Assembly: GCA_030704615.1 (NCBI GenBank)
Contig: CM060732.1
Location: 15,066,001 to 15,130,000 of the forward strand
Length of the DNA: 64,000 nt
From: Takakia lepidozioides
Taxonomy: Eukaryota > Plantae > Bryophyta
Direction: 5' to 3'
A model generated the notes under the pieces. It did no database searches and was not told the DNA's origin. It saw nothing but the letters and a program-made list of their open reading frames with translations. Positions 9,007-48,981 of this stretch are shown here, one piece after another; position 1 is the first letter of the stretch; each line of letters opens with the position of its first letter. Position numbers and translations under genes: made by a program.

Positions 9007-11145
<2,139 letters not shown>

Positions 11146-17960: not shown

Positions 17961-18044
17961 TTTTTTTTTCCCTCTCTCTCTCTCTCTCTTTAGGCAGAAA
18001 ACTACCCTGGACCTGTTCGCAGTCTATGACATACATTACTACCC

Positions 18045-21000: not shown

Positions 21001-21001
21001 G

Positions 21002-21910: not shown

Positions 21911-21914
21911 ATAG

Positions 21915-23990: not shown

Positions 23991-24287
23991 TTGCATGTCT
24001 TAGGAAATGGGCAGTAGTGTTGATAGCCTGTTTTGTCTAAGTCATAAACCAGCGGTTCACAGTGGGGGCTGCTATTTCATGAGCGGCATGAGCGGCATGA
24101 GCGGAAAAAAAAAAGCATGAGCAGACCATTGTGTGAGTCCACGGAAATAGGGTTAGGAGGCACGGAAATAGGGTCATGTGAAGTTGGAATGTGGCACCAG
24201 TGGACTTGAAATGCAACATTTTATTGCAAATTTTTGTGCAAGCCACGTCTATACAGTGTGTTCTAACTGTCATAGCCGGAATGGGCA

Positions 24288-27200
24288 CTACTCTCCTACA
24301 CCCTCCGAGGAACTTGCCCCACCTTCTTCCTCATCCCCCTCATCCCCCTCATCCTCCGAGCTCTGTGATGCATCAGTTCCACTATGCCTCTCAAAAATCC
24401 CGTCCTCTCCTTGGGGGACCGTCCACCTCACCTCCTGGGAATCTTCTACGTCTTCTCCCCCACTTTCCTCAACAGAATCCAAGACAAATCTACGAGCCCG
24501 ACGGGCTCTAATAGCTGCTGCCCTCCTCCCTCATCTTCATTTTCTTGAGGCTTGCCTCGTCTAAAATCTGCTGTACACGACTACGTTCGGAACACCTCCT
24601 AATGGACACCGAAGCAAGCCGGGCAGCATAAGTAGGAAGGATGTACTCCCTTTCTGGACTAGGCATGAAATCCCCCCTGGCAAAAAAAGGCACGTTCCTC
24701 CTGCCCATGAACTCCGGTGTAGACGTCCCTCCGGCAGTACTTGGCATCCTACAGTAAGAACAAATCCACTTCAAGAATGTCAATACCAGCACAACCAGAA
24801 AGGGTTTTCAATGAAATAAGAGAGCGGAGGGAGGTGCCTCACAAAATCTGGAGGCAACTTACAATGCCACACTCACTCTCGTAAACCGGGGGCTCCTCGC
24901 CTCGATCCCAACTTCCTCCCCCTGCTCCTTCTCGGATTTTTCCTCATCCTCCGAGGATGCCTCTTCCTCTTTTGGCAGACGTTCAGCCCGCTGCAAGTTC
25001 CGAGTTGTGGAGGGCAGTATCTGGCTCGAAGGCGAACACATGCCTGTCGGACAACGTCCCTGCCCACATTGAAGCACTTGAGGAACAAAGCGGGCGGTTA
25101 ATAGCTTGCGGCATGCAATTGCAATCGGGCCAGGGGACAAACTGAGCACGTGAAGGCTTACCCGTGCCGCATGTGAGGTCCAGAATCCGCCCTTTGGACA
25201 TCCGAGCACGTCTCCATGAGGGTTTGGATGAAAGCAGGGCTCCGGGTCCGGCTGTACCGCCACGGTTTGCCTGTCTTTGTGTCCTTCGGCATACTGGAGT
25301 GGGGCACATAGTTGTAGAGGACATCGTAGGTTACAGGGTCCACAGCGGCATCAACAAGACGACCGTCGTTGCGGAATTTGAACGTAGACCCTCTCTTCAC
25401 AAAGCAATATGCCTCAAACACCAATGTCTGCACATCCAACAAAGAAGGGATCAACTCCAGGGTCTACTTAACATACACCACAATATGAAGTGAATGCAAT
25501 AGATTGATAACTTACACTTTGGCCCTCTGTTCGCAACCCCTGTACTGATGCAGAACCATTTTCTGAGGAGGACCGGGGTGACACTTTTCGGTGTCCACCT
25601 TGCCACCGCATTCTCTGTGGTCTTCCCTCTCGTGGCAAGGACAACCACACATCCACCGTCATCCAGAAGCATCCCCGCCAGCCCAAACCCGGCTTTCCAG
25701 TAGTCCTCAGTAAACCTGTTCCAGGTGGGCACACCATCCAGGCCCTCCAGCAGCTCCCCATCTGGAATGTCGAGGAGAATCATGTCGCAAGCTCTCTCCA
25801 CCTCAACCCCCCCCCCGAGTGCTCTTGCAATTCGTGCTCACAGCCGTGAAGAATTCCATCATGGCTTCAAAACCAGGGTGTCTTTAGGCTCTGTACCGGC
25901 AGCCCTCTTCTTGGCTTTCCCCTTCTGCTCCGCCAGAGACTTGCTGTGTGCCACCTTCTTTGCCCTGGCAGCGAGAGCGTCAAGGAAGCTCTCATTGACG
26001 CATTGGATGATGGTTGGAGGTTCTAGCTTTGGCCTGTGCGTAAACGTCACCGCCGAATACCGCCGTGTAGGCTCGCCCTCAAATGCCAACTTCTTGGCAG
26101 AGCCAGTCCCACTCCGAACTGACTTGGGAACCCGGACGACCGGTGACTGGTAGGAGCAACAGCAGTTGCAGGACCTTGAACAAAGTCGTCGTCCGAGTCA
26201 CTCTCTTGGGTCCCCTCCTGCGCCTCCTCCGATGCCCCGATGGTTTTCTTCTTTTTGGGTGTTACTGCACTCACCTGTTTCCTTGTCCTTTTCCTTTGCC
26301 TTTGGCCTTTACTCTTCTCATGCAATTTCTCCTGAATTCCTGCCTGAGCAAGCTCTGCCGCTTTCCTGGAGTTCGCAAGCGCTTTTGCCTCTTTTGCACC
26401 CAACGGAGGCAGCGGAGCCCGGTTTCGTCGGAATTCAGCATCCAGCTTCAATTGAAACTCGGATGGGTCGAGCGAGCCGGGCGGAAGGTCCACATACCAA
26501 GGGCAATCACGCAAATGTTCCAGATGCCACTCCTTCACAATATCGTCAGTGTACATGGAGTCAGCCCCAGGGTTCCTCCATGCCAGGAAGAATGGTGGCT
26601 CGAAAGACAGATGACCTTTTCTCCAAAAGGGAGAACTTGCAGTACCTGCATTCATGAAAAACACAATGAGTCCCTGAAATGCATATTCGGCACCATTTTC
26701 CCAGGTTGGGGCGGATGTGAGTGGGCCTAGAAATGGAAAAATGGCGCCGAATTTCGGTTTTCGGACTGCCACCCTAGGGACTTAGCCATCTTGGGAGCCC
26801 TGAACTGAAATTCGGCGCCATTTTTCCCGGTTTGGCCCGAAGATGGCTAAGTCCCAGAACCGCAATAGGGCCTGGAACTGGAAAAATGGCGCCGAATTTC
26901 CAGTTCAGGGCCAGCCACCTAGGGACTTAGCCCGAAATGGCTAAGTCCCTGAACGGCAATAGGGCCTGGAACTGGAAAATGGCGCCGAATTTCCAGTTCA
27001 GGGCCAGCCACCCTAGGGACTTAGCCCGAAAATGGCTAGTCCCTGAACGGCAATAGGGCCTAACTGGAACCGAATTTCCAGGCCAACCCGAAAATGGCTA
27101 AGTCCCTGAACGGCAATAGGGCCTACAACTGGAAAATGGCGCCGAATTTCCACTTCGGGCCAGCCACCCCTAGGGACTTAGCCCGAAAATGGCTAAGTCC

Positions 27201-29900
27201 CTGAACGGCAATAGGGCCTGGAACTGGAAAATGGCGCCGAATTTCCAGTTGAGGGCCAGCCAGTCTAGGGATTTAGCCCGAAAATGGCTAAGTCCCTGAA
27301 CGGCAATAGGGCCTACAACTGGAAAATGGCGCCGAATTTCCACTTCGGGCCAGCCACCCTAGGGACTTAGCCCGAAAATGGCTAAGTCCCTGAACGGCAA
27401 TAGGGCCTACAACTGGAAAATGGCGCCGAATTTCCAGTTCAGGGCCAACCAGTCTAGGGACTTAGCCATTTTCGGAGCCCTGACTGGAAATTCGGCGCCA
27501 TTTTCCCTAACACCACATGAGGCTCTAACATCCTGAAATGCAAGGCCTTGAAAGAAAGGCAGCGCGTATGTACCTGTACAGAAGGCGCATTGCTGCTTTG
27601 TCCGCGTTCGGCTGGTCGGTGAACTCGTGGCTTCGGCGAGCATCTGCTATCTCCCGAAAGAATAGGTTGGTTTTAGAGCAGAAAGTACCTCGTCACATAG
27701 TCACGTAGGCTCTCTGCTGCAGGAGATATCTCCATCTTGAACTGATGTGCTTGTGTGTCCAGCTGCTCTTGCGCATTCGTCGTCACCTGTGGAGATTCTC
27801 CATCAGATCGCTTTCCTAAAAAACAATGAATCCACCCCCTACTAGAGTAGAAGCCCCAACGAAGCGTGGGGAAGTACCTGAAACCACCATGTCATGCAGT
27901 TCATCCAAATGTCGAATGTGGGGTCAGAGAGTTTGTCCGGTTTGGGGAAGCTCCACATGTCCCTGGTACTTTGGGAACCATTCCAGATTTGGAGCCACCG
28001 GGTTTGTCCAACCACCCAGCATATTCGTAAGCGCCAAACACCACAAAAAGGAGTTGTTGCCACCACAATTTGGTTAAGAATGTATCACCTTTTCTGTTGC
28101 ATCCACACAGGATGTGGCTAGACGATGGAGCTTCTCCAATGTCATCGTGGGCTTCAGAGCGCGAGAGTAGTGCTTCCCCACCTCCACCAGAAAGTCGGCA
28201 CCAAGGGCGGGATCAGCTATGGCCACGTACTTTACATCTGCGACTTGTACTTTATGCGGGCCCTCACCTCCGCAGCTTTGACATACGATTCGAGTTCCGG
28301 GAGGGTTGGATTCTTCTCCTCTGACTCCATGTAGAACCTCCGCGCATGTGCCAAATCCTGCTGTATTTTCGTCTGCTTACGATTTGATGTCGGCCATTGC
28401 AGTTTTGAGAAGACTGTAATCTTTGGGCCCCGCAACCTTCAGCACAACACAATCCACGGCGAAATGCCAATCGAGGTCGTTGGGGTGGGCTTGGGCAATG
28501 TGCTCCATCCATGCAAGGAGGCGATGATTGCCGTCCCACACGTAGAACATCTTACCGGACAAGTGCTGGAAAAGAGGATCACTAGCAATCGATCTCTCGA
28601 ACTCCTCATTTCGCGTTTGCCAATGGGGACCCCATTTGTCCACCTCATCGGAAGTGTGGGCACGGGAAGCTCCGTGGTCATTCTCAATGGAAACGTAAAA
28701 CGCGGCAGACCCCATTCGATATCCATCCCGGAAAGAGAATTTCAGCTTGTCGATATCGCCTGGGAGGGCAGGTCTCACCACCTGCAATGACACCAAGCGG
28801 CAAAGGGGAATTCGAAGCTTGGCCGGGTACACCATGCCCCCCAGCACCCTGCCAATGTTGCTGTGGGTTGCCTCCAACATCTTGGCAGCGGCCAACTTCA
28901 TATCCGCCTCAGACATGACGTCTGCTGCAAAGGGGTTTTCCGGCAGCCCACCAGGACCGCCAAATCCAGCCTGTATGCTCCGGGTTTGGGGCCTGGGGAT
29001 GTCCGGGAGGATGTCATCCTGGTCAGAAAGCTCCCTGTCGTCCTCCTCAACAGGGTCAGCCACCTACGAAACCACCTCCAACACTCTCCCCGTCTCTACT
29101 ACCCTCTCACTGGCTTCACCTCGAACTTGCACAATCCGTGCTCTTTCTGGTGTTCTTTCCTCTCCTCCACTCTCCACCGTATGGGTAATTGCGGGGGCTG
29201 CTCTTGCCCGCGATGGTCTAACCGGTGTGTTACTGCCTCTCTGTGGTGTCTTGGAGGGATCCACCGTCTCTGTGCGTCCTCGCTTACATTGGCATCTGTC
29301 ATTTGGGCACCCCTGGCCTCTTTAGTGGCCTTTTCTCTTTCCTCCTGGCTAGCATTCTGTCTCGTCTATTCTTTTGCCCTCTCTTTTGCCTCTCACGGGC
29401 TTTCTGTTTCTTACTAGGGCTAGCAGCAGGGGAGCCCTCCAGGACGACCACCTTTGATTGAGGCGAACTGACACCCTCGCGCGCACTGCTCACTCCCCCC
29501 TCCGCAGCCCGTGACGGCTCTCTCGCCGGGGATTGCATGTGCTTAGCTTTCTTCTTTTTCTTTGCGTGGGCGGGCCCTACTGCATGTGCATGAACAACCT
29601 CCATTGCCGGATCTGCTGTCCTCATGTCCTCACGCCCTTCACCTGCCATGCCGCCTGCACCAACCTCCCCAATGCCTATTATGTCGTACTGTCGTTGCAA
29701 GTCCTCCCGTCCACCAACAAAAGGTTGAAGTTTGCCCTCTCGCCCCAAGTTGGGCGATTCAAACATGCAATGAGTTGGAGCTGTCGATGATACCACCAGC
29801 GTGTCGGGCTCGTCGTCACTTTGTGATTCCCAAAAATCGTGAAAACCAACATCGGTGCAAAACCAGCATCGCAACGAGCAGCGCAACCACCATAGCAACA
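24288..29900 (-). pseudogene. Spliced, disrupted gene: low-complexity N-terminus, ParB/Srx-like domain, beta-class amino-(N6A/N4C) DNA methyltransferase-like domain, acidic tail
   Basis: ParB-like FYVWDGNHRLLAW at ~28509-28547. MTase motif IV-like DMILLDIPDG at ~25757-25786. Motif X/I-like RSPAFIQTLMETCS..GRILDLTCGTG (~25160-25240), then ASMWAGTLSDRHVFAFEPD. Several frameshifts and stops; exon boundaries are approximate. Confidence 0.7.
26680..27510. repeat. Tandem array of ~95-bp self-complementary units centred on GGCGCC, apparently intronic in the ParB-MTase gene
   Basis: Unit GGCTAAGTCCCT...AACTGGAAAATGGCGCCGAATTTCCAGTT...AGGGACTTAGCC, with about 10 core motifs. Confidence 0.9.
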
Positions 29901-31849
29901 ATCGTGTAACAAAAATGAAAACATAACAAGTTTAGGAAGTATGGAGAGCCATGCTAGCTTCAGCATTGAGAGGGCTCTTGTCATGGCAAGAGCAGGGCTG
30001 GAACAAGAGCTAAGAGATGCGGCAAGGCCATGGAATGTGCACCTAGGGTTTCAGAGCTTGGAAGAAGAGCTCTTGCACCACAAGAGAAGTGTCTTGTGGC
30101 TGGAAATGTAAGCCTTAGGGTTTCAGGAGCTTGGCAAAGGCTGTGGAGTGCTTAGTCTTGTCTTAGAGAGCATCAAGGAGCCAAGGAGCCAAGATAGGGG
30201 GCTGATATCTCTTGTGTGAAGAGGTTGCATATGTGGAGCATGTATTCAGCTCATTGAAGCTTCCATCTTCAAGCTTGGAGGGCAAGCAAGGAAGAGGGAA
30301 GGGCTGACTTCCCTTATGTGAGGGCAATGCATGTGTGGAGCATGCTATCAGCCTGGTGAAGGCTTGCACTTTCAGGTGTGGGAGTGCAAGAAAGGAAGGA
30401 AGGGCTGGTTTCCCTGTAGGGCATGTGGAGCATGCTTTCAGCCTGCTGAAGCTTGTATTTTCAGGTTTGTGGGTGCAAGAAATGAAGCAAAGGAGCTGAT
30501 TCTCTTATGGTGAGAGTGGGGCATGTGTGGAGCATGCCTTCAGCCCATTGAGGCTCTTGTTTTCAAGCTTTAGAGAGCTAGAACGGAAGGTCTAGGGCTG
30601 GTTTCCACTTGGAGTGAAAGAAAAGCACTTGTAGGGCCTATGTGAGTTGGGGTTTCAACTTCAAGCTTGAAGGGAGCGCAACTCTTGAAGCAGCAGGTGT
30701 AGGGGGCTGGAATAGGCTCTAAGACAGATGCTATGGCCAAGGAAAGTGCTTGAATGAGTGCTCACAAGGGCTGGGAACCAGCAGGGCTTGGTTGTTTGCC
30801 ATTGAGTTTAGTGGCGTGTTTGGGGAGGCTAAATGAGAAAGAAGGCTTGGTTTGTGGCAACCACCTCATGGCTTAGGGCTACTATGGTGGTGTGTGGGAG
30901 CCGAAAGAGCAAGAATACCTTGCTGATTTCCTCACAGCCGCCATAGCTCGATGGAAAGAAGCCTAGAGTCCAAGAGACACAAACCCTAGCTTGGCGTGGC
31001 TAAACCCCTTGGAGAAATGGCTAAACTGCTAGATTCACAATCCGAATCAGAACCTTCCGTAGAAGACACAGGAGGTGAAGGTGGCCTAAACCACACACCT
31101 CGTCTCGTGTACCCACTAGTATCGCTAGTGCTCGAACCGACACTGTCCCCAGCAACTAGTGGCACGTCCCTGTTGACACTCAACCGGTCATGAACATGTC
31201 CCTAACCCCCTCTCCACAAGGTAACCGGGTAGAGAACCTGTTGCGGCTTATGGTTTGGAATACTAAGTTCCTAACATAGCCTACACCTGTACCTGCATCC
31301 ACCGCAAGCACTCCTATGGTTGGCTGGTCATCACCTCCAACCTCACCACAGGAGAAACAATGTCGGTCTGGCTGGTCATCACCCCAGCCTCACCATCGAC
31401 AGCATGCTCTAGGACTGGCCGGTGATCAAATCCGGACCAATCACCTAAAACAAGCGCCCACACAAAACTAGCATGGCGCACAGTCAAGCATGCAGGTATG
31501 GAGGGATCCAAACACAAGAAATCAGAACGACAACTCCCCCACACCAAAAACAACTCCACGGTGTTGCTCCTGCAATGACACCCCAGCCCAAACCCGGACT
31601 GACTCTTGCCTCCACCTACGGAAAGGTCTTGGCCTAATGAGAGGGTGGAAACTACGAGGAAGAGAAGCTAAAGCAATGCCTAACCCCAGCATGCCCTCAT
31701 CCCAACACTCTTCCTCTCCTCTCTTCCCTCACTTGCATGATCATGGGAATATCATGAAGATACTCCTCAAACCGCCCTCCACGAGCTTCAAAATTCGGCC
31801 TTCAAGACCACATACCAGTCCTTAGGCAATCCACCAGTGCCTCCACGAG

Positions 31850-32340
31850 TCAGCACAGGCCGTCCACAGGTCAACGGGCCACCACAGACCAGCACAGGCC
31901 CACACAGCTCCCTCACACACGCCCCACGGCCACTGGGCACAGCCTGTCACATACCCGGCCCCACAGGCCACTAGGCGTCACAGCCCCTCACAGCCCGTCA
32001 CAACCCCAAAGGCCTCAGCACGGCCTATCACAGCCCTCAGCCCAGGCCACGGGCACAACCTGTCACAGCCCCAAAGGCCTCGGGCCCCCCCACCCCCTCA
32101 CGCCCCAAAGGCCATGGGCACAGCCTGTCACAGCCCTCACAGCCCTCACAAGCCCCACAGGCCACTGGGCACAGCCCGCACCCGTCACAGCCCACATGCC
32201 ACTGACAGCCCGTCACAGCTCGCCACAGCCCCTCACAGCCCCAAAGGCCTCAGCACGCCTGACACAGCCCCTCACAGCCCCAAGGCCATGGCAGGCCCGT
32301 CACAGCCCCCAAGGCCACATAGCCCCTCACGCCCCATCCA
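31850..32340 (+). repeat. CACAGCCC-rich degenerate minisatellite, of the kind also seen in the LTR and post-integrase region of element C
   Basis: Many CACAGCC(C) motifs; the reverse-complement motif occurs at 37670-37820, 42200-42290 and 49610-49760. Confidence 0.7.
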
Positions 32341-34720
32341 TGGCCACCGCTTCTGACTCATACCGGCGGTGCAAAGTTGTTTCTTTGCCATTGTTGTGGG
32401 ACAATGGAGGATGTATGGAGCTACCAAGGGGCCACGAAGGTACTCTGGGGCGGTGTGCACCATCGGTTGGATGATTTTATCCAAGAGTTTGATAGTTGGT
32501 GTGATTTGCACAAATGCGCAATCCACAACTATTTACACCTTTCATGGCATGGAAGGGCTATTTCAGCAGCACCTTGGGGGCCGCCTATGGATGATTACCA
32601 TGAGTTCAGGCGGGGGCATGAGGTTGAGATCGAGGAGTGGAGGATGTACTGGTCACCCGACTATGTCTCCATCACTAGGGGCACTAGAGCCACGAGGGCA
32701 GTGGCTACACCTGCCGCTGCACCGGCAGCTTCAGCAAGTAACAATGGGACTAGTGGGACTAGTGGTACAGTAGCTACGACGTCCCCCCAAGCCACTACCG
32801 CACCAGCACTAGCACCCGTGCCTGCCTTCAACCCTGTTGTGGAGTTCTTCGAAGAGTTGAGAGAAACTACCAAGGGTGAGGACAGAGAAGTTGCGAAGCT
32901 TGCAAGAGTTCCAACGGAAGCCGACCGAGAGCTTGAGGGAGGCTTTCACTCGCATGAGGTGCTTGATAAATGTAACCCAAGGGGTTACGGAAGCTCAAGC
33001 AGTCCAATTCTGGTATGGGATATGGGACAAGGAGCTGAGGAAGTGTTATTGTTTTGCATCCTGAGTTGCGCCCAGGCCAGTTCCAAGGGAACAATGGTGG
33101 CCGGGGGCGAGGTGGAGCAGCCCAGAGAGGACGAGGTGGCCAGCCACGAGGTGCAGGCCAAGGGCCAGCTCAACATGGCCAAGAACGCAGAGGTCAGGGG
33201 GTTGACCAAGGCATGGCCAACCAGCTTTAGTAGCTAGAGCAAAGGCTCGCTGCCATGGCTACAACTCAGGTGGTACCGGCTCTAAGGCCGGATGGTCCAC
33301 CTCCTGCTCCTGAGGGAGGAGATATGGGAGGCATGGGATTCATGTGTGGAGCCACCCACTAGTGCAGGTGGAGTCTGCTGCAGCCGTGACTCGAGGAGCA
33401 GCACGAGTTTCCTGAGCCACGAGGTGCAGAGGTGGAGTTGGATCCACAGCGTGGGGAGGCAAGCTGTCAGGCTAGGCTTCCTCAGTCATTCACATTGGCG
33501 GAGACAGTGTCTACGCCATCCATGGCACCTAGTTCTCGCCCGACTGTTACCGGAGCGGAGGTTACTATGCCATTGGGGAGAGCTACACGGATAGCACCAC
33601 TACCTAGTGTTGCCAAGGCTACGACAGCTAGTGTGCTGCTAGGAGCGGCCACATCTGTGTGTCAGGCTCCATTGTTCTCGGCTACCATGATTGCGACGCC
33701 GGGGGTAAGACCAGCTGAGGTGTTCAGGCTCGCAGCTACACTCTGTGAGAGTGGGAGGTTACTTCATCTTCTGCGGAGATAGTGGGAGGTGTAGTGCCGG
33801 AGGGATCCTCGGATTTGAGGGTCAAGACTGCCACGGCGGCGCCATGGCAAGCTGCAGCTGCCAGGTTGATGGAGCTGCCAGCTAGGCCAGCCATTGAGCG
33901 CGCCATGGTGACACCTGGAGTTGTCATGTTAGACAACCAGGATGGCATTTTCTGTTTGAGTGGACCGGCAGGCAAGAGGTACCGCCACTGCGGGTCTTGT
34001 TGGACTCGAGAGCTCAGCCATTGATGCTGGGCAGAGCTGCTATTGCAGGCTTGAGCCTCACGGAGGCGGATATGGAGCCTTGTCCTTTCCAGATACAGAC
34101 GTCTCTGGGAGGATCGGCAGGCTCGGGGCATGACACACGGCGTGAGTTGGCTATCAGACTACGGCCGGATCACCCTACAGATGGCTCAGTGATGCAAGCC
34201 AAGGACATTTGTGACAGACGGTCTCATACGATGTCCTGGTTGGTGGGGGCAGTGTTTACCCCATGGGCTTCACCCTGGATTTTTGGGAGGAGTCAGCTTC
34301 CTATAGCCTGCATGGCAGTCAGGGGAGGGCCGGCGTGTGCAGCTCTCTGTGACGTTCATAGAAGAGTTGCGGTTGCCCAGCGAGGCAAGATGCCGACACT
34401 AGCAGCATTCACAACGGCAGTGAGTTGGCCTAGAGAGTTGCTTGAGGGCAACACTCATTCAGAGGATGTGCCACCACCGGGAGAGCATGATGACATGTAT
34501 GGTATGGCGGAGTTGCCTACCATGGTTACTCAGACTCCATTGTGGGGCACGAGCAAGGATTTGCAGCGGGATGCTGATCGACGGGTGCAACAAGCCTGGG
34601 TGGAGGCTTTTTGTACCGTCAGGAGAGGAGGAGAGTGCGGGGATTGCACCAAGACCACCTCAGTTGTCTCCATTGGACACCACACCCTATTGTGTGGCAG
34701 TATCCGGATGAAGCATTTGT

Positions 34721-35670
34721 CTTCTGGACTTGTTTGGCGGGATCAGCACCGGATTGGCTGATGTGTTACAGGCAGGTGTACGAGTTCGACGTTACCTGTA
34801 TATGGAGAGGGATGAGACTGCACGACGCGTTTCACTTCGCCATGTTGCTCAGTTGGTGCAGCGGTACCCTGAGTTGTTGTCGGTGTCTGCAATTCGTGGA
34901 TATCAGCAGGCCTTGCCAGCAGACATTTCGTTGCTGGGGCGCAGGATTTGGAGCGGTTGGCTCCATTGATCTAGTAGTGGCAGGTTGGCCCTGCCAAGGG
35001 CATTCATCAGCCGGGCATGGCAATGGATTGCGAGACTCGAGGTCGGGTCTGTTTTGGGAGATGGTGCGGTTTTTGCGCCACTTGCAGCTTCATCAAGCTG
35101 TATCTCCAGCATACATCTTGGAGAATGTGCCACTGATGGGCGATTCTTGGGCCAGGGTGATGGCCAGTGTGCATCAAGTCCGGTCATGGCTTGGGTCAGC
35201 AGTGTTGCTAGATGCAGCTACAGTGGGGTCACAGGCTCATCGTCCACGGCTATGGTGGACTAACTTGATGCCACCCGCACTGCTCAAGCGTGCATTTGAT
35301 GGGTGCAGCCGCCAGCACATCTCACAGTGGATAGCATTCTGGACACAGGGAGGCAGTCTCTCAGCGTGTGAGACACGATGACCGTTCGCCTTTGGCAGTG
35401 GTCAACAAGGTGGGTCAACCACGAGCAGCATTACCTACACTGCTCAGCTTCCCAGGATCGCATGCTTTCCGGGATAGTGGATCTGGCCTCCTATGGGATG
35501 CTCAGTTGTAGCAGTTAGTGGAGTCTAATGCTGACGAGCGTGAGCGGGCAATGGGTTTTACCACTGGTACCACGGCGATGTCGTCTCTTTCTGAGGCAGC
35601 ACGTCGTCAAGTGTTGGGGCAAGCAATGGATCTCAATTACTTGACCTGGATTATCAGCTTCGCTCTGGCT
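34721..35670 (+). pseudogene. C5-cytosine DNA methyltransferase domain (DNMT3-like) inside the pol of element B
   Basis: Motif I LLDLFGGISTGL, IV IDLVVAGWPCQG, VI ILENV, VIII AHRPRLWWTNL, IX ERERAMGF, X RRQVLGQAMD, in canonical order. Two frameshifts and one TAG. Confidence 0.93.
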
Positions 35671-37060
35671 GAGCAACGCAGAGTGCGGAGTACACTTCCC
35701 TCGATGGTCTCTCTGCCTACCGAGATGGTACAGGCAGTGAGTGGGGGCGAGCATGTGAGGACCACGGGTGCATGCATCCATGGCACACGTGGGAGGTGCT
35801 CGAGGTTCAGAGGAGTTGGCAGCCAAGGCGGCTGTGATGGATGAGGTTGGGATTTTCCCGGGTTGAGGAGGTCCTTAAGGATGAGATGATGGGGCAGGAT
35901 GAGGCCTTGTCATTGACTGAGTAGGCAGGGAGTACTGCTCAAGAGGTTGCAACATAGCAACCACTGGAGCGTCCTACCTCTAAGCCTTGGAGGTTGCAGT
36001 TACGGAGGACAATTGGGAGCCTGACATTGGACCCATTGTCACCGGAGGAGAGAGACGACGTATACGGCGGTTCTTGAGGGCTTACAGGAATTGCTTTGCC
36101 TTCAATTTGAAGGACTTGGGAGCACTGAAGGGTCAAGAGATCCGTATTGAGTTGGCCACTGACACGCCAATCTTTCGGAGACCCTATAATACAGTGACAT
36201 GGAGAGGTCTTTGATTCAGATGAGGACTCAAGATCTCTGGGAGGCAGGTTTGGTGGAGCTCTCTGGTGGAGAGTATGCTTCAGCCACAGTGATGCCAGCC
36301 AAGAGGATGTCTATGGCAATTGGACGAGACGTATGTGCGGTGATTACCGGCCTGTAAATCATCAGACCAAGTCCGATAAGTATGCCATGCCAATACCAGA
36401 GGAGATCTTTGATGCCATCGGGCATGCTAAGGCCTTTAGCACTTTGGATTTACGATCCGGATATCACCAGTTGCCAATCAAGGAGGCGGACAAGCAGAAG
36501 ACGGCATTCTGGGGGATCAATGAGCACGGCAAGGATTGCCTATATCAGTGGCGGTTCTTACATTTGGGCTTAAGAATGCTCCTGCAGAGTTTCAGAGAGT
36601 CATGGATAGGATTCTAGCAGGGGTGGACTTTGCTCGGTGCTACATAGATGATATCATCATCTTTAGTGTTACGATGGAGGAGCATGAGAGACACCTTCAG
36701 GTGGTATTGGAGCGCTTGAGAGTGCACGGATTGAAGTTGCATCCGGGGAAGTGCAAGTTTTTCCACAACCAGATTGAGTATCTGGGTCACATGATATATC
36801 CTGGAGGATTGGGGTACCACACTAAGGTAAGGCCATTGCACAAAACCACGCCCCACGGATGTGAGCCGAGTTTGAGCTTTCATGGGGTTGGCAAACTATT
36901 ATAGACGGTTTGTCAAGGGATTTAGTACCATTGCAAAGGCTCTAACCAAGCTGACCAAGGTGGACCAGGAGTGGCAGTGGGAATGAGCAGGAGGAACGAG
37001 CTTTTCAAGAGCTCAAGGCGAGGTTGACCTCGGCGCCTATCCTGAGACGACCTATCAGGG

Positions 37061-37937
37061 TGTCGCGCGGCTTTTACTCACCCATCCCTTCGCTATCCGA
37101 GGTGGGAACTCCAAGATAGAAGAGTTGGAAATCTCTAAGCCTCAGCCCGCTCAGAACATCAGTCATGACCTACAGCTAGTGTATCATGGGGGTGTTTCCT
37201 ATTTGTTTCCTTCCCATTCATGTTAGCTAGTTACCTTACTATTGCAATTAAGTATCAGTTTGCTTCAAAAATCTATCGGATTCCATCCATTCATTCCACA
37301 GCTTCACTCAGATCTCTCTACACAGTGTGAGTATGAAGTATGTATCAGATTAATATCTATCAAGTATCAGGCTGAAGCCATGGTCTCTATCTGCTCTACA
37401 TTACAACTCTACTTCTTGCATTCAAGTATCAACAGATCGTTTCCTCCTACTCCGTGCTCTCCCTCTTCTCCTCAGAGATGCGCTCTCCGCTCCATTTCCA
37501 AGTTCTGATCCCCCGAAGTGATCATCCTCCAGTCCCCGCTCCTCGCTTTATCTTCCTACCGTGGTTCTAACCGTTTCCCTCACTAACCGTCATCCGTGAA
37601 CTAACATGTTCCATTCGCAGATGTTGTTCCCCACAGTCGTTCCCTGTCCTGCTATCCGTTCCCTATGGTCGTGACAGCTGTGTCAAGCTGTGACTGGCTG
37701 TGTGAAACTTGACTGCTGTGCGACTGTGTTGGGCTGTGTCGGCTGTGTCGAGCTGTGACTGGCTGTGGCGGCTGTGTCGGCTGTGTCGGCTGTGACGGCT
37801 GTGTTGACTGTGACGGGTTGTGTGTAAAAAGTGCGCTGCTGTCACCCCTAAGGCTCCTGTTGGTCTCAGTCTGTGCAAAAATTAAGGGTACCCCACAGAT
37901 CCCGTAAAGTGCCTAAGTCCCAGACAGTCCTCTAACA
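37061..37937 (-). repeat. 3' LTR of element C
   Basis: Matches 48982-49888; adjacent PPT GAGAGGGGGAAGGGG on the minus strand at ~37941-37955. Confidence 0.95.
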
Positions 37938-37953
37938 TTACCCCTTCCCCCTC

Positions 37954-40900
37954 TCAAAAAGCCGTGTCCTCACGGTTTACTGTTTGGGATTCCTTTGTGA
38001 GCACCCTTCTGACGTTAGAGTCTCGTGAAGGACTCGTGTGCGAGCCCGTGTCTGTCACTGGTTGAGGAGATGATTGAACACTACCTGGATATGTCAGTCC
38101 CTCTGGAGGCTGATATCGAGGTAATCTTTCAGGCATAGGAGACCCCCGTCGCTTCTTCTCTGCCATCTGAATTGCATAGTCCTCTGCCATGTCAAAAGAG
38201 TCCGCTGAAGAAAACAGTTGTATCAGAATCCTCGTCCCCCCTGAGGTGTTTTAACTGTCGAACTTAACTGGAATTCTCTGGGGCATACAATGTTGTCCCA
38301 CCATGTCTGGAAGTTTAAATTGTAAAACTTGTTGTAAGCGCTGAATTGCAAAATTGGTGAAGACCCTGAGCTCCTTGTCTGTCCAGGTGAGTGGGGTACC
38401 AATGACTTGTGAATTGTGCAAGTATTTCCATGCCTCATGTCCCTTAAAGAAAATATCGTCAGGGCCGAATTTCTGTGTTGACAAATTGTTCCAGGCCGCA
38501 TGAAACCATGAACGAATCTGAGAATCCTTTTGCATCATAACTTTTGCCTCATATAGGTACATATGAGGGTGGCACTGAAGGTAAGACCCAATGATCCCCA
38601 CTGGAATAACTCAGAAAGCGCGTTTGCATCTTCTGCTGCTCAATGTGATAACGTACCAGAAAACAAGCAGCGTAGTATAACCCGCAGCCCATGACAATAC
38701 TTGCTACCTCTTTGGTCTTGGTATAAATGAATCCATGTACAACTTGGAAGGCAATTAATTCCTTCAACATGGTACTTGCCTCATGCCAGTACTGCGCAAA
38801 GTGATGATCCTCAATTGGTCGATTGTTCGGAAGAACTTTAGTCCTAGTTGCCACTGGCAGCCAAATGCGCATGATTTGATAGTAATGTGCCAACGACTGC
38901 GGAGGACTAAATTCTTCCAAGCCAAATCCAACACAATGGGAATTTGGTTGAAGGGCATAATCATAGCCCGACTGTACTCCCGTGCAGCTGGAGTTTTAGG
39001 TGGGTTAAAAGCAGCATTCCCCCATACCTCAGGCTGTGGTGGCTGTGGTGTGGCTGTAGTAACAACAGGGTCAGCTACTGGCACAGTGACTTGTTGTGGT
39101 GTTGGTGGCACTGGCTCTTGTACCATTGGCATCTCCTGCACCCCCTGCGAAGAAGACTGAAAAGCCAAAGTTCTGGCTTGTAAATAAGAAGCCATCAGCT
39201 GTTCCTCAGGTACAAAGACTCTCTTTGTCGATATTTGAAGTGAGGTCCTCCACTGAGTCTGCAGGCCGTCTACATCCTCCTGTAACTCCGCTATCCTACT
39301 ATAGACATTGTCTATAGTAGTTGTGGCAATGTTCTGCACTTGCAGTCTGAGCTCATTCATCTCGCTTTGGGTGAGCTTTCGTGGTGCTTTGCCCTCCACC
39401 GGCCCTTGTGCTAACCAGACCTGCATAAGGTGGTTATCCACCAAGTTGCTTGTGGCACCCTGAGAGTCTGCTCCTCTGTGAGCCTGTACATCTATCTGCT
39501 GCTGTAAAGCCTCCATGCGCTCGCATGAGGTTCAACCAAACTCGCATAGCAGCAGCCAGATTATTGGCTTCCTTCCAAGCCTTGTTAGCCACAGAGAGTT
39601 CATTTCTATTGGACATGAGCGTTTGTTGCAATTCCAGGATGTACCTCTCTTGGTCAGCTTCAACCTGCCTGTATTGCTTGAAGGTATTCTCATTGCGACA
39701 GATTGTATTCTTCATATCGACAATGAGTTTCTTGCTCGACATTCTCTGCCTTCGTACATCTTTCCGCTTGACTGTTAATTTCTATTGTAGTTGGTCAAGC
39801 GTAGTTGTGAGTGTAGCACATTGTATGGCCATCCTGTCATGCACTGTCTGCAACTCCGTATGTAGTGCATTCACTTCTTGCAACTTGCTTTCATGCTTCA
39901 CCTGCATTTGGTATAGCTGTTGCTTATGTGCTTCGTGCAACTGGTCTTGCGAGGCCTGCCTCAATCAATTGTTCCTTGGCCAATTGCAAAGCCGCTTTTG
40001 TACTCTCTAAGTCTTGCTGTATCTTGAGAGTGACCTCTCATCGACCTTGTTTGCACACTCAGTGGCAAGTCGAGCCTCAAACTCCTTCCTGAGTTCCTCC
40101 CTCAAAGCTGCCAATTGGGTAGTTGGAACATGGGATTTGACATAAGTGCCCAACAAATTAAGTGTCCTGCTTATGGAACTCATAAGCATGGCCTGTTGAG
40201 GGTCATCATGGTGAGCTTGCTGCTTTCTCCCTGATCCTCAACAGTGTGATGCCTCACGAACCATTCAGGCCATTGCCCCACCAGATTTTCTTCCTGAACC
40301 ACTTCATCCGTCACAGGTGCTGCAGTGTCTTGACATTCTACCTGTGGTACCTCCGTCACAGGTGTGTGTATTATATGCACCGCAGGGTTTCCCCTGGACA
40401 ACCGTGCACCTCCGGAATCACTGTTTCCGACCAGACCAGAATTTTCATAGAGAAGGTCCCCCTTCTCAATTTCTGCCACCACCTGTTCTGTAGTGGGATA
40501 TCTAACCCTTCTTTCTCCAAATCAATTATTTCTGGTGGCTGCATGGACAACTTGTGGTAACTCTGTGACAAGCCGATCATCTGGCTGTGATGGCTGTGAT
40601 ACTGAAGTAACTTCCTCTTCCCTCTCTGAAGGTCCTGCTTCCAATAATAGCAGCTCTCTGTGCTGCTGTGCCCCTTCCCTGCACAAGAGCTTGGGAAACA
40701 TTATCATGCGGTTTCCGTGAAGCCAGTGGATCCGCCACTACAGTCTTTCCCCGCCTCTGTCTCTTAGTCTGGGGTTGCCCTGCCAGTCCACCCTCACTGT
40801 GTGAAGAGCCTTGCTCTTCCATTGCAGTGGTTTCGGTCTCAAACACTCCCATCTCCTTTCTTTCCGAGCATCAAGTATGCAGAATCAAGAATTATTTGAG

Positions 40901-41520
40901 CAATGATTGGGCCAGACACTATGATAGGAGACTTTGCGGCAGTGCCCTGTAATCTTTTCATCTCCTCTACCAGTGCGTTGTACATTATGTCCGCCCATGC
41001 TACCTCTTCTCCTCTCAGGGCTTTGAGTATTTCCTCTGTGAAGGATCTGCTCAAATACTGTTGGTTCTGTTTCATGGCAAACAGAACGTTCAATACCTGG
41101 CCTACCTCCCTTAGCCCTGGGTACACGGCCTTGGTACAAGCATAACCCTGAGTTTTAAAGAAACTCCCTTCTTGGAATAAGTCCCCTATTTGCAGTCTTG
41201 CCCTGTGCTCCTCCACATGCACCTGACCTGATGGCAATTCAAACAATTGCTGTAGGTATAGGGGAGTAATTTCTAATTCAACTCCCTTCACCGTTGTTGC
41301 TCCTGTCCTAGGCTCAAAGTTCTCTGCAAGAATTGTAACATGTACTGCCTATGGTGCAATGTCCAATCTTTGCTTTGCAATCCTTCTAATCGCAGCTCCT
41401 TCAGTAATTGTACCGCCTGTGGAGTAGCAATCGTTTGTTTCTGCAGGATTGTGGTGCTCTTCACCCTGATTTCTTCCATTCCTCTCACTCTCTTCATTCT
41501 AGACCCACAGAAAGGTTTTG
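37954..41520 (-). pseudogene. Large extra ORF region downstream of integrase in element C, probably one frameshifted ORF
   Basis: Chain of same-strand ORFs: 41288-41713, 40839-41291, 40577-40852, 40180-40482, coiled-coil 39434-40189, 38764-39516, 38549-38920, 38251-38601, 37954-38190. Confidence 0.7.
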
Positions 41521-44500
41521 GCTGTAACAATTGAAGAAATGCCTGCAGGGCACAAAGCATAAACGTATGGTTGCCACAAAATGCTATGGGTAATTTCTTG
41601 TAAGCCTGCGGGGCTTGCAAGCATCGATTAAGAGAAAAGATCCGCTCTGTTCTTCCGTCCCTATGCCACTGCGTAAGTAATATTGCGAGCGTATAGTCTG
41701 TTAGTTCCTCCATAGCTTCAAAGCTATAGCATTGATGGTTTTGTCCCGTCGAGACGCCCGTTACTTGGAACGACGCCGACTCTTGCGCTTAAAATCCCTC
41801 CAATTTCTTGATCCTGCTTCTGGCTTTGATTGGCTGTAACCGCTGTGACTGGATTTTAGATTTAATTTTCTTTAGTGGACTTTCCCTGCTGGACTGTCCA
41901 CTAGGATAACACATGTGACAAGAATTTCGCTTTTCTGTACTTGCCGTTTGTTCCGTTGCCTTTTTCCGTATTCATTAATGGGCCCGCCATTCATCCGAAT
42001 TGACGTGCTAAGTAGGTACTTTGACGGCCATTCTTGTCCTTTCTTGATGACACCTGTTCTTGCACTTCCTTCTCAGCTGTGTGTCGCGCCCTGACTTCCA
42101 CGTGTCCATTTCTAAACTGGCTTCCGTCCTTTCTTCCGCCGGCCATTTCCTGAAGTTATCCTGCGTCCACCTGTCACTGATTCTATGGATTGTGTAACCC
42201 TAGTAGGCTGTGTTGAGCTGTGACAGGCTGTGTCTGTGGGCTGTGATAGGCTGTGGTTGTGGTAGGTGTGATAGGGCTGTGATAGGCTGTATATATGCTC
42301 GGCCTAGCGACAAGTGCTCCATACTCCGTTGGTATCACTGGCGCAGCCCGTGACTGCTTTTGCGTTTCAACATGCAAATCATGCTGCAATGGTTTGTCAT
42401 GGATACCACTGTACCCCTTCAACTTATTGGCATTGACTCTTCCCAGCATCTCTTTGTTAATGGTTTGTAACATGGCGGTGTTGTTATCATACATCTTCTG
42501 TATGACATAAGGTCCTTTCCATGGTGATTTAAGCTTAGAAGCTTTAATCTTTCCCTTCTTCTGCAACCAGAGAACCAAATCTCCCGTCTTAAAAGTCTTT
42601 AACTTGCCTTCATCAAACTGTTCCTTCCTCTTCATCTGAATTCTGGTCATATTATCAGCTGCATCAGCACGTACTTCTTCCACATGGTATAATTCATGTT
42701 TCCTGACCTTAAATCTTGCAATGGTTCTCATGGTAGGTAACAGGAATTCCACTGGAAGTAAAGCTTCCATACCATAAACTAATTGGAATGGTGTATACTT
42801 AGTGGTGACTTTATATGAAGTCCTGTATGACCACAAAGCTGTCAGCAGCGTATCCCAATCCGTTCTGTTTGCATTGACTATCTTAGCCAAGATAGTACAT
42901 AGTATTTTTGGTAGCCTCTGCCTGCCCATTACCCTGTGGGTAATATGTTGTACTCTTCCTATGCACAATCATGAACTCTTTAGTCAATAATTCAATGGTC
43001 TCATTAATGAAGTGACTTCCCTGATCACTGATAAATTCCAAGGGACAGCCAAATCGTGTAAGTATGTTCTCATACAGGAACCTTGCTGTGGACTTGGCTG
43101 TGTTGTCCCTCAAAGCTTTAGCTTCCACCCACTTCGTAGTATAATCAGTGGCTGTAATTATGTACCTGTTCTGTGTATTCTTGGCTGGTGGGTTAATTGG
43201 TCCAACAAAGTCTAGTCCCCATTTCTGAAATGGTTCCGTAGGCATTGTAGGATGCAAAGCCATCTTCCCAGATCTCTGCAAAGGTCCTAGCCTCTGACAT
43301 TCATCACAACTCTGACAATACTTGTGTACATCTTTGAACAAAGTAGGCCACCAGTAACCTGCATGTAGTATCTTCCTACTGGTAGTCTCTTCTCCAAAAT
43401 GACCTCCTGCCACTCCTTTATGAACTTCCTCCAAAACTTTATTAACTTCATGGTGGTATAAGCATCGCTTCAGCACTCCATCTGGTCCTAGCTTATACAT
43501 TCTGCTCCCTACCATAGTGTAAGGTAGAGCCTTGATAGCAATTCTCTTTCTCTGCTCCTTTCCATAACTTGGTGGGCACTGACCATGAGCAAGGTAGTAT
43601 CTGATTGGCCACTGCCAATCTAACCAGTCATCTGCACTTCCCTGCACCTCCACTGCAATAGACTCGCATCTGGTAATTGATCATCTACTCCCGTGGCTGG
43701 TTCTCCTGTTGATAACCGTGACAAGTGATCCGCCACAAGATGCAGCCTCCCAGGCTTGTAAACAACCTCGAACTCAAACTCGTGCAAGATTATCAACCAT
43801 CTTGCTATTCTTCTTCCGCTTATCAGAGGTTTGTTTACCAGGTATATCAGAGCCTGGTGATCCACATAGAACATAAACTTCTTGCCCAACAGGTAATGCC
43901 TGAATTTCTTCACTGCATAGATCATTGCCAATGCTTCTCTTTCCGTTGTGCTATAATTTCTTTCGGCATTGTTCATCAATCGGCTAGCATAGTACACAGG
44001 TGAATCTATCCTTCCTGTAACATTTTGGGCTAACACTGCTCCTAGTGCTTCTCCAGAAGCATCACAGTGAATGAAATATTTCCTGCCAGTGAGGATTAAT
44101 CAGCACAGGTGTAGTTGTTACTGACAATGTAAGTTCCTCAAAAGCCTGTTGACATTCAGGTGTCCATGCAAACACTGCATCTTTCTTCAGAAGTTTGCTC
44201 AATGGTGCTGCTATCTGTGCATACCGTCTGACAAATCTTCTGTAATAACTGGTTTGCCAAGGAATCTCCTTAGACTCTTAACATTCACTGGTGGTGGAGA
44301 GGCTTTAATGGCCTCTGTTTTCCTGGGATCCACAAGAAGTCCCCTCTTACACACAATGTGTCCCAGAAGCACCCCTGAGTTCACACAGAAAGTACACTTC
44401 TCTGGATTCAGGCCCAGACCTCTCATCCTGCATCTGGCCAGACATAACTCCAATTTATGCAAGTGCTCATTCTTAGAGCTGTACACACTGAAATCATCCA

Positions 44501-47500
44501 AGAACACCTGCATGAAAAGATACTCATGAAAAGATTCACTTATCACTCTCTGAAAGGTTGCTGGTGCATTACAAAGTCCAAAGGGCATGACTTTGTATGC
44601 ATAAGCACCCCAGTCTGTGATGAAAGCTGTCTTTCCTTGGTCTTCTTCTGCCACTTGCACTTGATTATAACCACTGAAGCCATCCATGAATGAGTATCTC
44701 ATGGCCTGCCACAGTGTCCAATACTGCTTCTGTGAATGGCAAAGGGAAAGGATCTTTCTTCGTACAAGCATTCAGCTTCTTGTAGTTCACACAAACTCTT
44801 AGTTTACCATTCTTCTTGGGAACTATCACAATGGGTGACAACCAAGTTGTATACTCTATTGGGTATATAAACTTAGCCTCAGCCAACTTCTTGATCTCTT
44901 CTCCAACCTTCTGTGCATAGTTGGGATTCATTCTGTACCTTGCCTGCTTGATTGGTACTGACCCTGGTTCCAGTTCAATCTTATGCTGACAGATTCAGGT
45001 GGTATCCCTTTTAGATCCTCATAGCTCCAAGCAAATACATCTCTGTATTTGATGAACAAACTCTTAGCTTCTTCAAAGAATTCTGGCTCCAAATCAGCTC
45101 CTACCTTCACCATCCTCGGTTCCTCTTTTCCCACATTCACTTCCCTCACCTGCTCATCAGCTGTGATTGTCCAACCAGTCACCACTTCATCCTGTAAACT
45201 CACAGTGGCTGGTTCCTCTAGGATTTCCATTTCTCCTTCTCTTTCTTCATAGAAATGTGATGGGTAACTGCTGGTTTCCTCTTCAATTGGTGTTGCTGAC
45301 ACTACACCACAGCAGATACCTCTTAAACAACTTAGGCCTTCCAGCCGCATCTCTGCAACCTGCTCCCACTCTGGGTGTGCAGCAAACAGGGTAGCTTCCT
45401 GCTCCTCATCCAGTCCTCCTCTCCAGTCATACTCTCTGACCCCTCGAGGTCTTCTCGTAGCAGGTAATCTACTAGATTTCTTTGTGGTAATTTGTATCTC
45501 GTGCATCCCATTATGCACGGTTAGTAACTGAGAATTCCAGTCATGGAATACCCTGGCCTGTTTCAGCCACGGACGTCCCAATAATAAGGAGTAAGCCTCC
45601 ATGACTTCATCCATCTTCAACACAGTTACTGTGATCATAAAGCTCCATCTTCTGTATCTGTATCTTAAACTCCTCTTATTAATCCCAATGGCTGTACACC
45701 CTTTGATCTGCCATTGTTACCGTAAATGGGGCTGGTTTCATGTTACTTAGACCAAGCTTCTTCTTAATATTGTCTGTCATGATATTTATTCCAGAGCCTT
45801 CATCTATCAGTACATCAGTTAGTTCTGTGCTTCCAATTTCTCAATTGGATTACTGGCATAGAATAATCAAGTCATGACTGTTTCTTTTCCTTTCTCGCCC
45901 TTCCGCCTACATCCAACATGGTCACCTTTCGTTCAGGTCTGTGTTTCCTTTCTCATGGGCAATTCGATTGATTGCTTGATACAGCCTGTGTCTACATAAG
46001 GTGCTACATCCAATAGCTGTCCAATTGTAATCTCTGCTATTGGTCTGGCATATTACTTCACAAGCCAAAGTCCCTGTTCATTACTTTGCATGTCTGCCAG
46101 CTTCTTTCTTCCTTTCATTTCCTCACTCACTTCTTCTTCTCCATCAGAATCAGAGGAATCTGCCACAGGAATATCAGTACTCTTCTGCATTTCCCTTATG
46201 GTATCTGCCACTCCTTGTGCAGTTCTTTCTCATCTCTCCAGCCTCATCATCTTCAGGCATATCACTGCCACCATTCATTATCATCATCTTCCTCGACTAC
46301 TGGAGGTATTAGTTTGGCTTTGCTTCTTGTTACTTCATTGTACTTACTTCTGGTACAACACATGGCCTAACCATGTGAGCTGCCACCACTGGGCCCTCAT
46401 TCACAGGAGCTCTCATCTCATTCTGGTGTCTAATCAGAATGAAACAAGCTGCCTTGCGATGTCCTGGCTGATACAAATAGTAACACATTTCTTCACCATT
46501 GGGTCCTCGCCCTTGGTCTGCTCTTGGTTATTTCTGTAATCCTGATTCCCGGCTGGTAATTCCCCCTTGGATTACCCTGATAGTTGCCTCTGGAATTTTC
46601 TTGGTAATTCCCTCTGAATTACCTCTCCCTTCCATTGCCCATTGTTATAACCACCAGACCTACTATAGTGGTCCTGATCATTGTTTCTTCTTGGCTGGGG
46701 TTGCACCTGATGCACATTACTTGCCTAGGTTCTCTTGCAGCTGTCCTTCTGTTGTAGTAACAATTCTCAGTAGAATGGTTATCCATTTTTACAGATAGTA
46801 CAGTGTTTCTCCTTCATGTGCATTCAGTTGGTATGGCCCTTCATTCTGGCACTTTGCACACCATACCCCTTCCTCCAGTGTGTTTGCAGCCTCTGTGGCA
46901 TACTTCTTCAAGATTTCTTCTAATCTTTTCTCATAGTTATCCCTCTTCAACTTTCTCCTTTCTCTTACTCTCCTTTTTAGTTCTTGCTCTTCTTCTTCAT
47001 CTGACTCATCCTCAGAGTCCTCATCCTCATCCCTTTTCTCTCCCTGAGCATTCCCAATTGCTCAATTCTGTTTGCAGTTTCAAATGCCTCCTCCACTGTA
47101 TTATGGGTAACATATCCACTTCTTTTTGCAACTCTGGTCTTAGTCCACTCACAAACCAAGTCTTCTGTAAACCTGGTGCTGGTACAGCAGCCAGCTTTTT
47201 CATCATCAATTCCATCTTTTCCATATACTCCTCAACAGTTTCATGCTTCCTTTGCTTTAACTGTTGTAAACTTCCATACACTTCATGCTCAGTTTTACTT
47301 GTTCTGAACCTATTTCGAATGCTGTATTCAAGCCATTCCAGGTTAGGAAATGATTATCAGGGAATCTTTCATACCATTCACTTGCTTTCTTTATAAGTGA
47401 ACAAGGAAACAATCTCATCTTGGCATCATTGCCATTCTCATTGTTCACTATACACATGTGCTCAATGGGCTAAATGTGTACATCGGAAACCCCTTTTCCT

Positions 47501-48960: not shown

Positions 48961-48979
48961 TTCCCCAGTATGGTCGCCA
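48961..48979 (-). promoter_or_regulatory. Primer binding site of element C, possibly tRNA-Arg-like
   Basis: TGGCGACCATACTGGGGA lies 2 nt after the 5' LTR. The tRNA identity is from memory of similar PBS sequences and was not checked. Confidence 0.75.
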
Positions 48980-48981
48980 AA

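Follow-up and report, generated by a model that had tools for sequence, protein, structure and literature searches.

The window, by which we mean the whole 64,000-nucleotide stretch of DNA that was analysed, holds a Ty3/Gypsy retrotransposon whose domains run in the order gag, protease (PR), cytosine methyltransferase (DNMT), reverse transcriptase (RT), RNase H (RH), integrase (INT) and PHD finger; the Ty3/Gypsy order gag-PR-RT-RH-INT, with a DDE integrase, is present. Its coding parts, and an element nested within them, are as follows.

32398-33755, plus strand: gag, broken (tblastn to Marchantia Mp_4g09160; family profile)
33985-34360, plus strand: aspartic protease, broken (family profile E 7.8e-23)
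34712-35670, plus strand: DNMT3-like C5 cytosine methyltransferase domain with four frameshifts and one stop (PF00145; DNMT3A as best PDB match; motifs)
35955-35963, plus strand: conserved stop in a readthrough-type context, TAG CAA CCA
36190-36980, plus strand: reverse transcriptase, broken (RVT_1 E 4.7e-22 and 3.7e-05; tblastn)
36985-37060, plus strand: RNase H region, first part (tblastn to MARPO_0091s0058, residues 971-995)
37061-49888, minus strand: nested unrelated LTR retrotransposon, element C (LTRs 37061-37937 and 48982-49888)
49889-50261, plus strand: RNase H, second part (RT_RNaseH E 1.3e-34)
50457-51630, plus strand: integrase, broken (rve E 1e-13; tblastn to Klebsormidium KFL_009030040)
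51761-51895, plus strand: C-terminal PHD finger with one stop (PF00628 E 5.5e-06; family profile E 5.6e-19)

An earlier note on this DNA had placed the DNMT between protease and RT on the same strand, and this holds, with the protease motif LLDSRAQPL at 33997 upstream and RVT_1 downstream. Pfam matched PF00145, RVT_1, RT_RNaseH, rve and PF00628 in the element, the note having proposed such a search for PF00145, RVT_1, rve and PHD; the window protease piece had no Pfam match, and its relatives carry PF13650/PF13975. Element C, which the note had put at 37061-49893 and which we bound at 37061-49888 on the minus strand, splits the RNase H of the DNMT-bearing element, has a 5-bp target duplication (CAGGG) and gave no DNMT profile match. 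It is a Gypsy element with a tRNA primer site, extra frames after its integrase (38764-41788) and strong CpG depletion (observed/expected 0.23-0.32). For PHD-bearing elements, we take Chlamyvir to be a lead. The window also contains an intron-flanked ribosomal S12 exon of the host (10515-10934, minus strand; PF01248 E 9.8e-24), with four PDB matches at about 1e-44, presumably plant ribosomes, and the remainder at 1e-29 or weaker. This plant-like exon, and the fact that the closest named relatives of the element come from liverworts, make a seed-free land plant the likely host. A pair of inverted repeats of about 270 bases, 85% alike (53954-55153), is possibly a small DNA transposon.

All six of the C5-MTase motifs reported by the note were located in the window at the place it gave. 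We take their numbering to be that of C5-MTases.

34724-34756, plus strand: motif I, LDLFGGISTGL
34980-35000, plus strand: motif IV, AGWPCQG
35118-35129, plus strand: motif VI, LENV
35235-35249, plus strand: motif VIII, AHRPR
35536-35559, plus strand: motif IX, ERERAMGF
35614-35631, plus strand: motif X, LGQAMD

The motifs stand in the canonical, unrearranged order. The domain matched PF00145 above the Pfam cut-off (E 2.4e-12), and a family DNMT profile scored 171, 141 and 87 bits on its three pieces, the best score on 20 shuffled windows in six frames being -1.5 bits. DNMT3A came first among the PDB matches of a window piece (E 1e-05), and the family profile, built from 44 sequences, also favoured DNMT3A (E 5.9e-27) ahead of DRM (1.6e-15), HhaI (3.3e-09) and DNMT2 (3e-05). 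As a stand-in for the fold comparison we used a natural relative, L006, whose domain is 68% identical to that of the window; its predicted model (pLDDT 96) aligned to DNMT3A with a TM of 0.73, and the best 30 matches listed were all DNMT3 structures. DNMT3 is closer than DRM, DNMT2 or bacterial enzymes both by sequence and by fold (the latter from L006), which bears out the earlier description of the enzyme as DNMT3-like.

The window copy itself is damaged. Its DNMT motifs are spread over three reading frames: the frame shifts near 34935, 34954, 35303 and 35357, and 35509 is the site of a stop. Gag and protease upstream are likewise broken, so this copy, as assembled, would be unable to make the protein. 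Some of the breaks may be assembly noise, since the LTRs of element C differ by 13 substitutions but 20 indels over 875 aligned bases; the A repeat pair of the DNMT element, described below, has no indels. Compared with other copies in the X1 and X2 contigs, the DNMT-element region of the window showed A>G at 45 and 47 places and T>C at 35 and 37, as against G>A at 21 and 24 and C>T at 18 and 21 in the reverse direction. The window copy thus mostly holds A or T where other copies hold G or C, an excess that would be expected from decay of methylated cytosines.

Five breaks within one domain would suit a host DNMT3 fragment that was captured a single time and is now in neutral decay, or motifs that match by chance. 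We give this reading scarcely any weight, and four lines of evidence rule it out. The first is the gap between the family profile scores (87-171 bits) and the best shuffled score. The second is coverage: in the organism's sequencing contigs the DNMT reaches the same depth as gag and RT, in agreement with the view that it is family-wide and not a single capture. Altogether 40399 and 44382 contigs (two runs of one sample) matched 32300-37100 and covered 30 of 30 bins, and contigs of four sequencing runs covered all or most bins. Summed depth in X2, which is not a copy number and serves only to compare domains with each other, was 0.57-1.23 million in DNMT bins and 0.38-1.11 million in those of gag, protease and RT. 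The third is constancy of order: protease, DNMT and RT followed one another in each of the 41 loci where protease and RT are both present, the loci having been collected through DNMT patterns. The fourth is selection. Between subfamilies, where dS could be computed, the DNMT gave dN/dS values of 0.09-0.16, far below 1, as the note had asked to see: 0.12 (L031/L033, dS 0.26), 0.087 (L057/L068), 0.114, 0.14 and 0.16. The window and L024 gave 0.09; with amino-acid identities of 44-68%, most window comparisons were saturated. For two pairs of decayed genomic copies the values were 0.36 and 0.45 in the DNMT and 0.28 and 0.37 in RT. On these sequence comparisons, the DNMT is judged to be under purifying selection. 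Its catalytic residues are also retained across the family, with the motif IV Cys in 178 of 182 full-length domains and the motif VI Glu in 181 of 182.

Protein searches returned 43 and 64 proteins and 230 clusters at 50% identity (E up to 1e-30), and 282 metagenome loci were found, of which 80 were kept for analysis. The named hosts are Marchantia, Calypogeia, Sphagnum, Klebsormidium, Closterium and Monoraphidium. The statement that a DNMT is not a standard feature of land-plant Gypsy lineages needs revision: one widespread Gypsy group, associated with liverworts and mosses, carries it as a standing feature. Among 250 proteins with a DNMT match, the DNMT lies after protease or before RT in 69, after RT or RNase H in 83 and before integrase only in 26, and stands alone in 72. 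These positions include a second architecture, RT-RH-DNMT-INT, which forms a sister group and whose sole named host is the chlorophyte Monoraphidium. This sister group is large (P0056-P0084 and many of P0105-P0251), with the order RT-RH-DNMT-INT-PHD and often WECQ at motif IV.

In trees, the window clusters with Marchantia and metagenome loci (SH-aLRT 98 for RT-RH and 99 for DNMT). A single branch splits the two architectures in both the RT-RH tree (99) and the DNMT tree (87), with all DNMT-before-RT rows on one side (21/21 and 35/35, respectively); both are quick trees with long-outgroup roots. The RT-RH tree held 30 of the 60 rows of the second architecture and the DNMT tree 15 of those 30, the outgroups of the latter being two long, bacterial-like C5-MTases. 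From these trees, made up of element rows and outgroups, we propose one capture of the DNMT followed by a move within the polyprotein.

Between DNMT and RT, the window and 37 of 43 related loci have an in-frame TAG or TAA followed by CAR-YY. Because the loci are redundant (L008 and L015, for example, have identical DNMT rows), these are not 37 independent events. When frame was ignored, TAR-CAR-YY occurred 200-360 nt 3' of the DNMT in 34 of 40 and 3 of 3 loci of the two nearer subfamilies, against a background expectation of 0.019 per 160 nt, and in none of the 20 loci of a third subfamily. The end of the DNMT and the start of RT are close in 47 loci, 26 of which have both in one frame; among these, TAG or TAA followed by CAA or CAG was found 80-91 codons before RT in 18 of 18 loci of the two nearer subfamilies, and TAG/TAA-CAR before RT in none of the 8 of the third. 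L031 has a single stop in 2331 codons, from gag to PHD, and L047 a single stop in 1700, each in frame with RT. Three Marchantia proteins terminate 79 residues past the DNMT domain and one Calypogeia protein 81, which is where the loci have the stop. CAR-YYA after a stop is a readthrough signal in plant viruses such as TMV, and MuLV and SIRE1, too, rely on a stop in frame (PMC2194720, PMC2754532, in the text available). The strict CAR-YYA form was found in the window and 5 of 43 loci, and CAA CCC in 31 of 43, including most moss-associated copies. No RNA structure beyond that of shuffles was detected downstream of the stop in the four loci tested (z -0.4 to -1.4).

The position of the stop suggests that the DNMT is likely to form the C-terminal end of the Gag-PR product, with RT to integrase reached by readthrough. 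The phrase 'inside pol', used of the DNMT by the note, thus does not fit this lineage, where a conserved in-frame stop comes after the enzyme and makes it most likely the last part of the Gag-PR protein. It is quite probable, from the arrangement of the reading frames, that RT, RNase H, integrase and PHD are made by stop readthrough at a few percent of the DNMT level. In Klebsormidium-like proteins the DNMT continues into RT without a stop, and with the stop-less third subfamily this implies that a Gag-level supply of DNMT is not needed across the whole group. In that subfamily (L056-L080), no TAR-CAR-YY was found between gag and protease in the eight loci checked; the gag-protease distance was a multiple of three minus one base in 6 of 8, a hint of a programmed frameshift before protease.

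In working copies, the DNMT would be made as the tail of the Gag-protease protein, as the stop comes next, and at the Gag level many enzyme copies would enter each particle. We lean towards its being freed by the element's protease and packaged. It might then place 5mC on the cDNA before integration, so that a new copy resembles host DNA or evades host enzymes acting on unmethylated DNA; this step is put forward tentatively, at a little short of an even chance. Taken whole, our best explanation, which we hold to be rather better than evenly probable, is that the window contains the broken DNMT3-type domain of an abundant Gypsy element of the KnitGypsy-Dnmt3 kind, whose enzyme would be a packaged, cDNA-methylating tail of Gag-PR.

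An alternative target is host chromatin. Guided by the PHD finger, the DNMT could hold the element itself in check by methylating the insertion site and its surroundings, or resident copies, and would then not act on free cDNA. The window element and many relatives, of either architecture, carry a PHD finger at the end of the integrase, and insertion-site effects and host benefit are discussed by de Mendoza 2018 (PMC5890265, in the text available). In this lineage, however, the conserved stop leaves the DNMT unlinked to integrase-PHD in most products. This suits a component of the particle better than an enzyme tethered to the integrase, and we consider the chromatin alternative unlikely. It is rather improbable, further, that the domain is retained for nucleic-acid binding, RNA methylation or as a particle scaffold and makes no 5mC in DNA. 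That possibility would accommodate the Klebsormidium enzyme, which did not methylate yeast DNA in a test that its authors call inconclusive (PMC5890265, same text). It would also accommodate the occurrence of WECQ in place of WPCQ at motif IV in 11 of 51 domains of the window-type architecture and 45 of 101 of the other, and the lack in the element of extra CpG loss, which would have been a sign of self-methylation (observed/expected 0.49-0.64, flanks 0.52-0.61); the nested element C is lower. Weighing against it, the catalytic Cys and Glu are nearly invariant, the nearest folds belong to the DNA-specific DNMT3, the profile match to DNMT2 is far weaker (E 3e-05), and related Dnmt3 domains of SymbioDIRS methylate CG de novo (PMC5890265). 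The missing CpG loss and the yeast result also count against the packaged, cDNA-directed enzyme, which remains our preferred reading.

The ends of the element are unusual, with the layout A-internal-PPT-B-A-B in the window.

20684-21000, minus strand: repeat A1, likely the element's own 5' end, inverted and displaced; begins TGTC, preceded by ACAC
52151-52162, plus strand: polypurine-tract-like (PPT) run directly 5' of B1, 86-92% like six related loci there
52163-52352, plus strand: repeat B1, ends GACA
52355-52671, plus strand: repeat A2, begins TGTC, preceded by a 2-base spacer
52671-52848, plus strand: repeat B2, the element's 3' end, followed by ACAC

Two matching LTRs are absent from the window element, which ends in A on one side and B-A-B on the other. 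A1 and A2 are 99% identical (three transitions); B2 differs from B1 by no substitution and one 12-base indel. TG...CA ends with a short target duplication were found in the window, L043 and L057, the 4-bp duplications being ACAC (with the 5' end inverted), AAGG and GGTC, respectively; L062, the third complete-ended locus, has none. The ACAC match (chance about 1/256 for four bases) and the 4-base duplications in two of three complete-ended relatives make A1 likely to be the element's own 5' end. Among 19 loci that reach PHD, A-internal-B-A-B is complete in three and partial in others. At the B-A junction the window shares GACA-NN-TGTC with L024, L043, L057 and L062, and just upstream of B1 stands a purine run. 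By eye, no TGG tRNA primer site follows A1 in the window, L043, L057 or L062, whereas element C has one; a tRNA gene search found none.

If the true LTR starts after the purine run and consists of B, spacer and A, the inserted form would correspond to a circle with two LTRs, one of them opened at its spacer. Cutting each strand after CA would produce the ends on which a DDE integrase acts. The A-B-A-B ends, the GACA-NN-TGTC junction and the 4-bp duplication fit such a permuted circle, and we give nearly, not quite, an even chance to the possibility that a two-LTR circle is opened at this palindromic junction and then integrated. A DIRS-like layout was noted in the Klebsormidium element by de Mendoza 2018 (PMC5890265, available text).

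The region upstream of gag appears to be rearranged.

18025-20683, minus strand: likely the beginning of a long 5' region that includes a tandem array; lower limit inferred
24042-32397, plus strand: high-copy region 5' of gag (in X1, X2 and X5 its summed depth resembles that of gag)
24986-25837, minus strand: antisense frame, broken, in which motifs like those of amino-methyltransferases can be picked out by eye (DMILLDIPDG..LLDDGG and ILDLTCGTG)
28377-29063, minus strand: antisense ParB/DUF3723-like frame, WDGNHR (atlas DUF3723 clusters 0.96 and 0.95)

Summed depth is high at 19300-21000 and low at 21144-23909, with steps near 21000 and 24040, and a 6-bp GTCATA is common to both presumed breakpoints. 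The steps and the common 6-mer agree with a displaced 5' end, and A1 was likely displaced by an inversion or a misassembly (18025-24042). No joint across the presumed inversion was seen in the contigs, the lower breakpoint lying outside the stretch compared. Pieces of a relative of element C flank it, at 15159-18000 on the minus strand (gag and protease) and 22000-24040 on the plus strand (a 3' extra frame, a purine run and an LTR-like stretch); that both are related to element C does not prove continuity. A Copia-like remnant is visible by eye near 21300-21900. Tandem arrays at 18000-19600 and 26700-27500, on either side of the presumed inversion, have a similar motif with a common near-palindromic core. 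The second array lies in 24042-32397, which is somewhat more probably part of the DNMT element than a separate nested element.

The antisense frames in this region (24986-29063), in several broken pieces and as high in copy as the retroelement, may be cargo of the element, a ParB-like/amino-methyltransferase-like gene, which we offer as a lead only. The ParB-like frame matched a PHROG ParB-like profile at E 0.03, and the other frame had atlas scores of only 0.80-0.84. Riccia sorocarpa R1sor_008990 matches both parts in the same order, the ParB-like part at E 6.6e-10 and 1e-14 and the methyltransferase-like part weakly, through the C-terminal part of the Riccia protein (E 3e-4). No methyltransferase match was obtained in Pfam or PHROG, no useful match in PDB and no match in the 80 related loci, and the enzyme type suggested for 24986-25837 is likewise a lead.

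All of this could be joined into one account, which we regard as improbable in its entirety. An old, unclassified green-plant Gypsy lineage would have captured a DNMT3 once, before the chlorophyte/streptophyte split, and relocated it within the polyprotein; in land plants a leaky stop would load particles with the enzyme, priming would be tRNA-free, and a two-LTR circle would be cut at its palindrome. In this host an antisense ParB-like/amino-methyltransferase-like gene would have been added, giving an element of about 19 kb with two DNA-modifying enzymes.

The Klebsormidium element was described as a capture in that lineage, with the role of the enzyme left open (de Mendoza 2018, PMC5890265, available text). 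Relatives in liverworts, peat moss and Closterium, together with the large sister group, suggest instead an old and widespread lineage, and members in the genetic model Marchantia make the enzyme's role testable there. The conserved stop predicts DNMT at the Gag level and RT-integrase through readthrough, and the end structure predicts a circular route that is unusual for a retroelement with a DDE integrase. In public sets, element copies carry the host gene annotation 'DNA (cytosine-5)-methyltransferase', so DNMT counts in seed-free plants can be inflated.

Several known systems bear comparison. The catalytic domain of mammalian DNMT3A/3B (PDB 6w89, 6f57, 2qrv) has the same motif order and fold (TM 0.73), but identity is about 21%, and the retroelement domain lacks PWWP and ADD and is embedded in a polyprotein. 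MuLV gag-pol, SIRE1, Tca2 and TMV (UAG-CAR-YYA) likewise have one in-frame stop between coding parts, and the window-type stop matches the CAR-YY of the TMV context (PMC2194720, PMC2754532, text available). It differs from them in sitting after protease and DNMT, in having no downstream structure that we could find and in reading CAA CCC in many copies. The plant Ty3/gypsy clades of REXdb (Neumann et al. 2019, PMC6317226) share the domain order; in its accessible text Chlamyvir is an alga-specific clade, and the words 'methyltransferase', 'PHD', 'Marchantia' and 'Klebsormidium' are absent. In a literature search that covered subscription journals thinly, we found no report of a DNMT-bearing land-plant Gypsy, its stop or its junction, nor anything on these in the accessible text of PMC12344493, PMC9033089, PMC9940879, PMC2774666 and 10.1101/2021.02.12.428880.

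The note had mentioned DNMT-bearing retrotransposons from dinoflagellates and Klebsormidium, and both are on record as SymbioDIRS-Dnmt3 and KnitGypsy-Dnmt3 (PMC5890265, from which, in the text available, the following comparisons are drawn). SymbioDIRS-Dnmt3 of Symbiodinium shares a Dnmt3-type domain in a retroelement and A-B-A-B repeats, and methylated CG de novo in yeast; it has a tyrosine recombinase, whereas the window element has a DDE integrase and a target duplication. KnitGypsy-Dnmt3 of Klebsormidium nitens is closer, sharing the Gypsy domain set, a Dnmt3-like domain, free of introns and unrearranged, that sits between protease and RT, DIRS-like A-coding-B-A-B repeats and purifying selection. 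Klebsormidium KFL_009030040 (PR-DNMT-RT-RH-INT) falls on the same side as the window in both trees. The window element resembles KnitGypsy-Dnmt3 in its workings and may well share its descent. In contrast to it, the window element resides in a likely land plant at very high copy number and has a C-terminal PHD, which the main text of that paper does not mention, as well as a 4-bp duplication, the palindromic junction described here and possible antisense cargo. Its DNMT is followed by a conserved in-frame stop and is not in one open frame with RT, so we class it as a variant, not a plain member, of the KnitGypsy-Dnmt3 group. A DNMT-bearing Gypsy of this kind was already known from one green alga (de Mendoza 2018); new here are the conserved stop after the DNMT, the permuted ends with their junction, the sister group with DNMT between RNase H and integrase, and the possible antisense gene.
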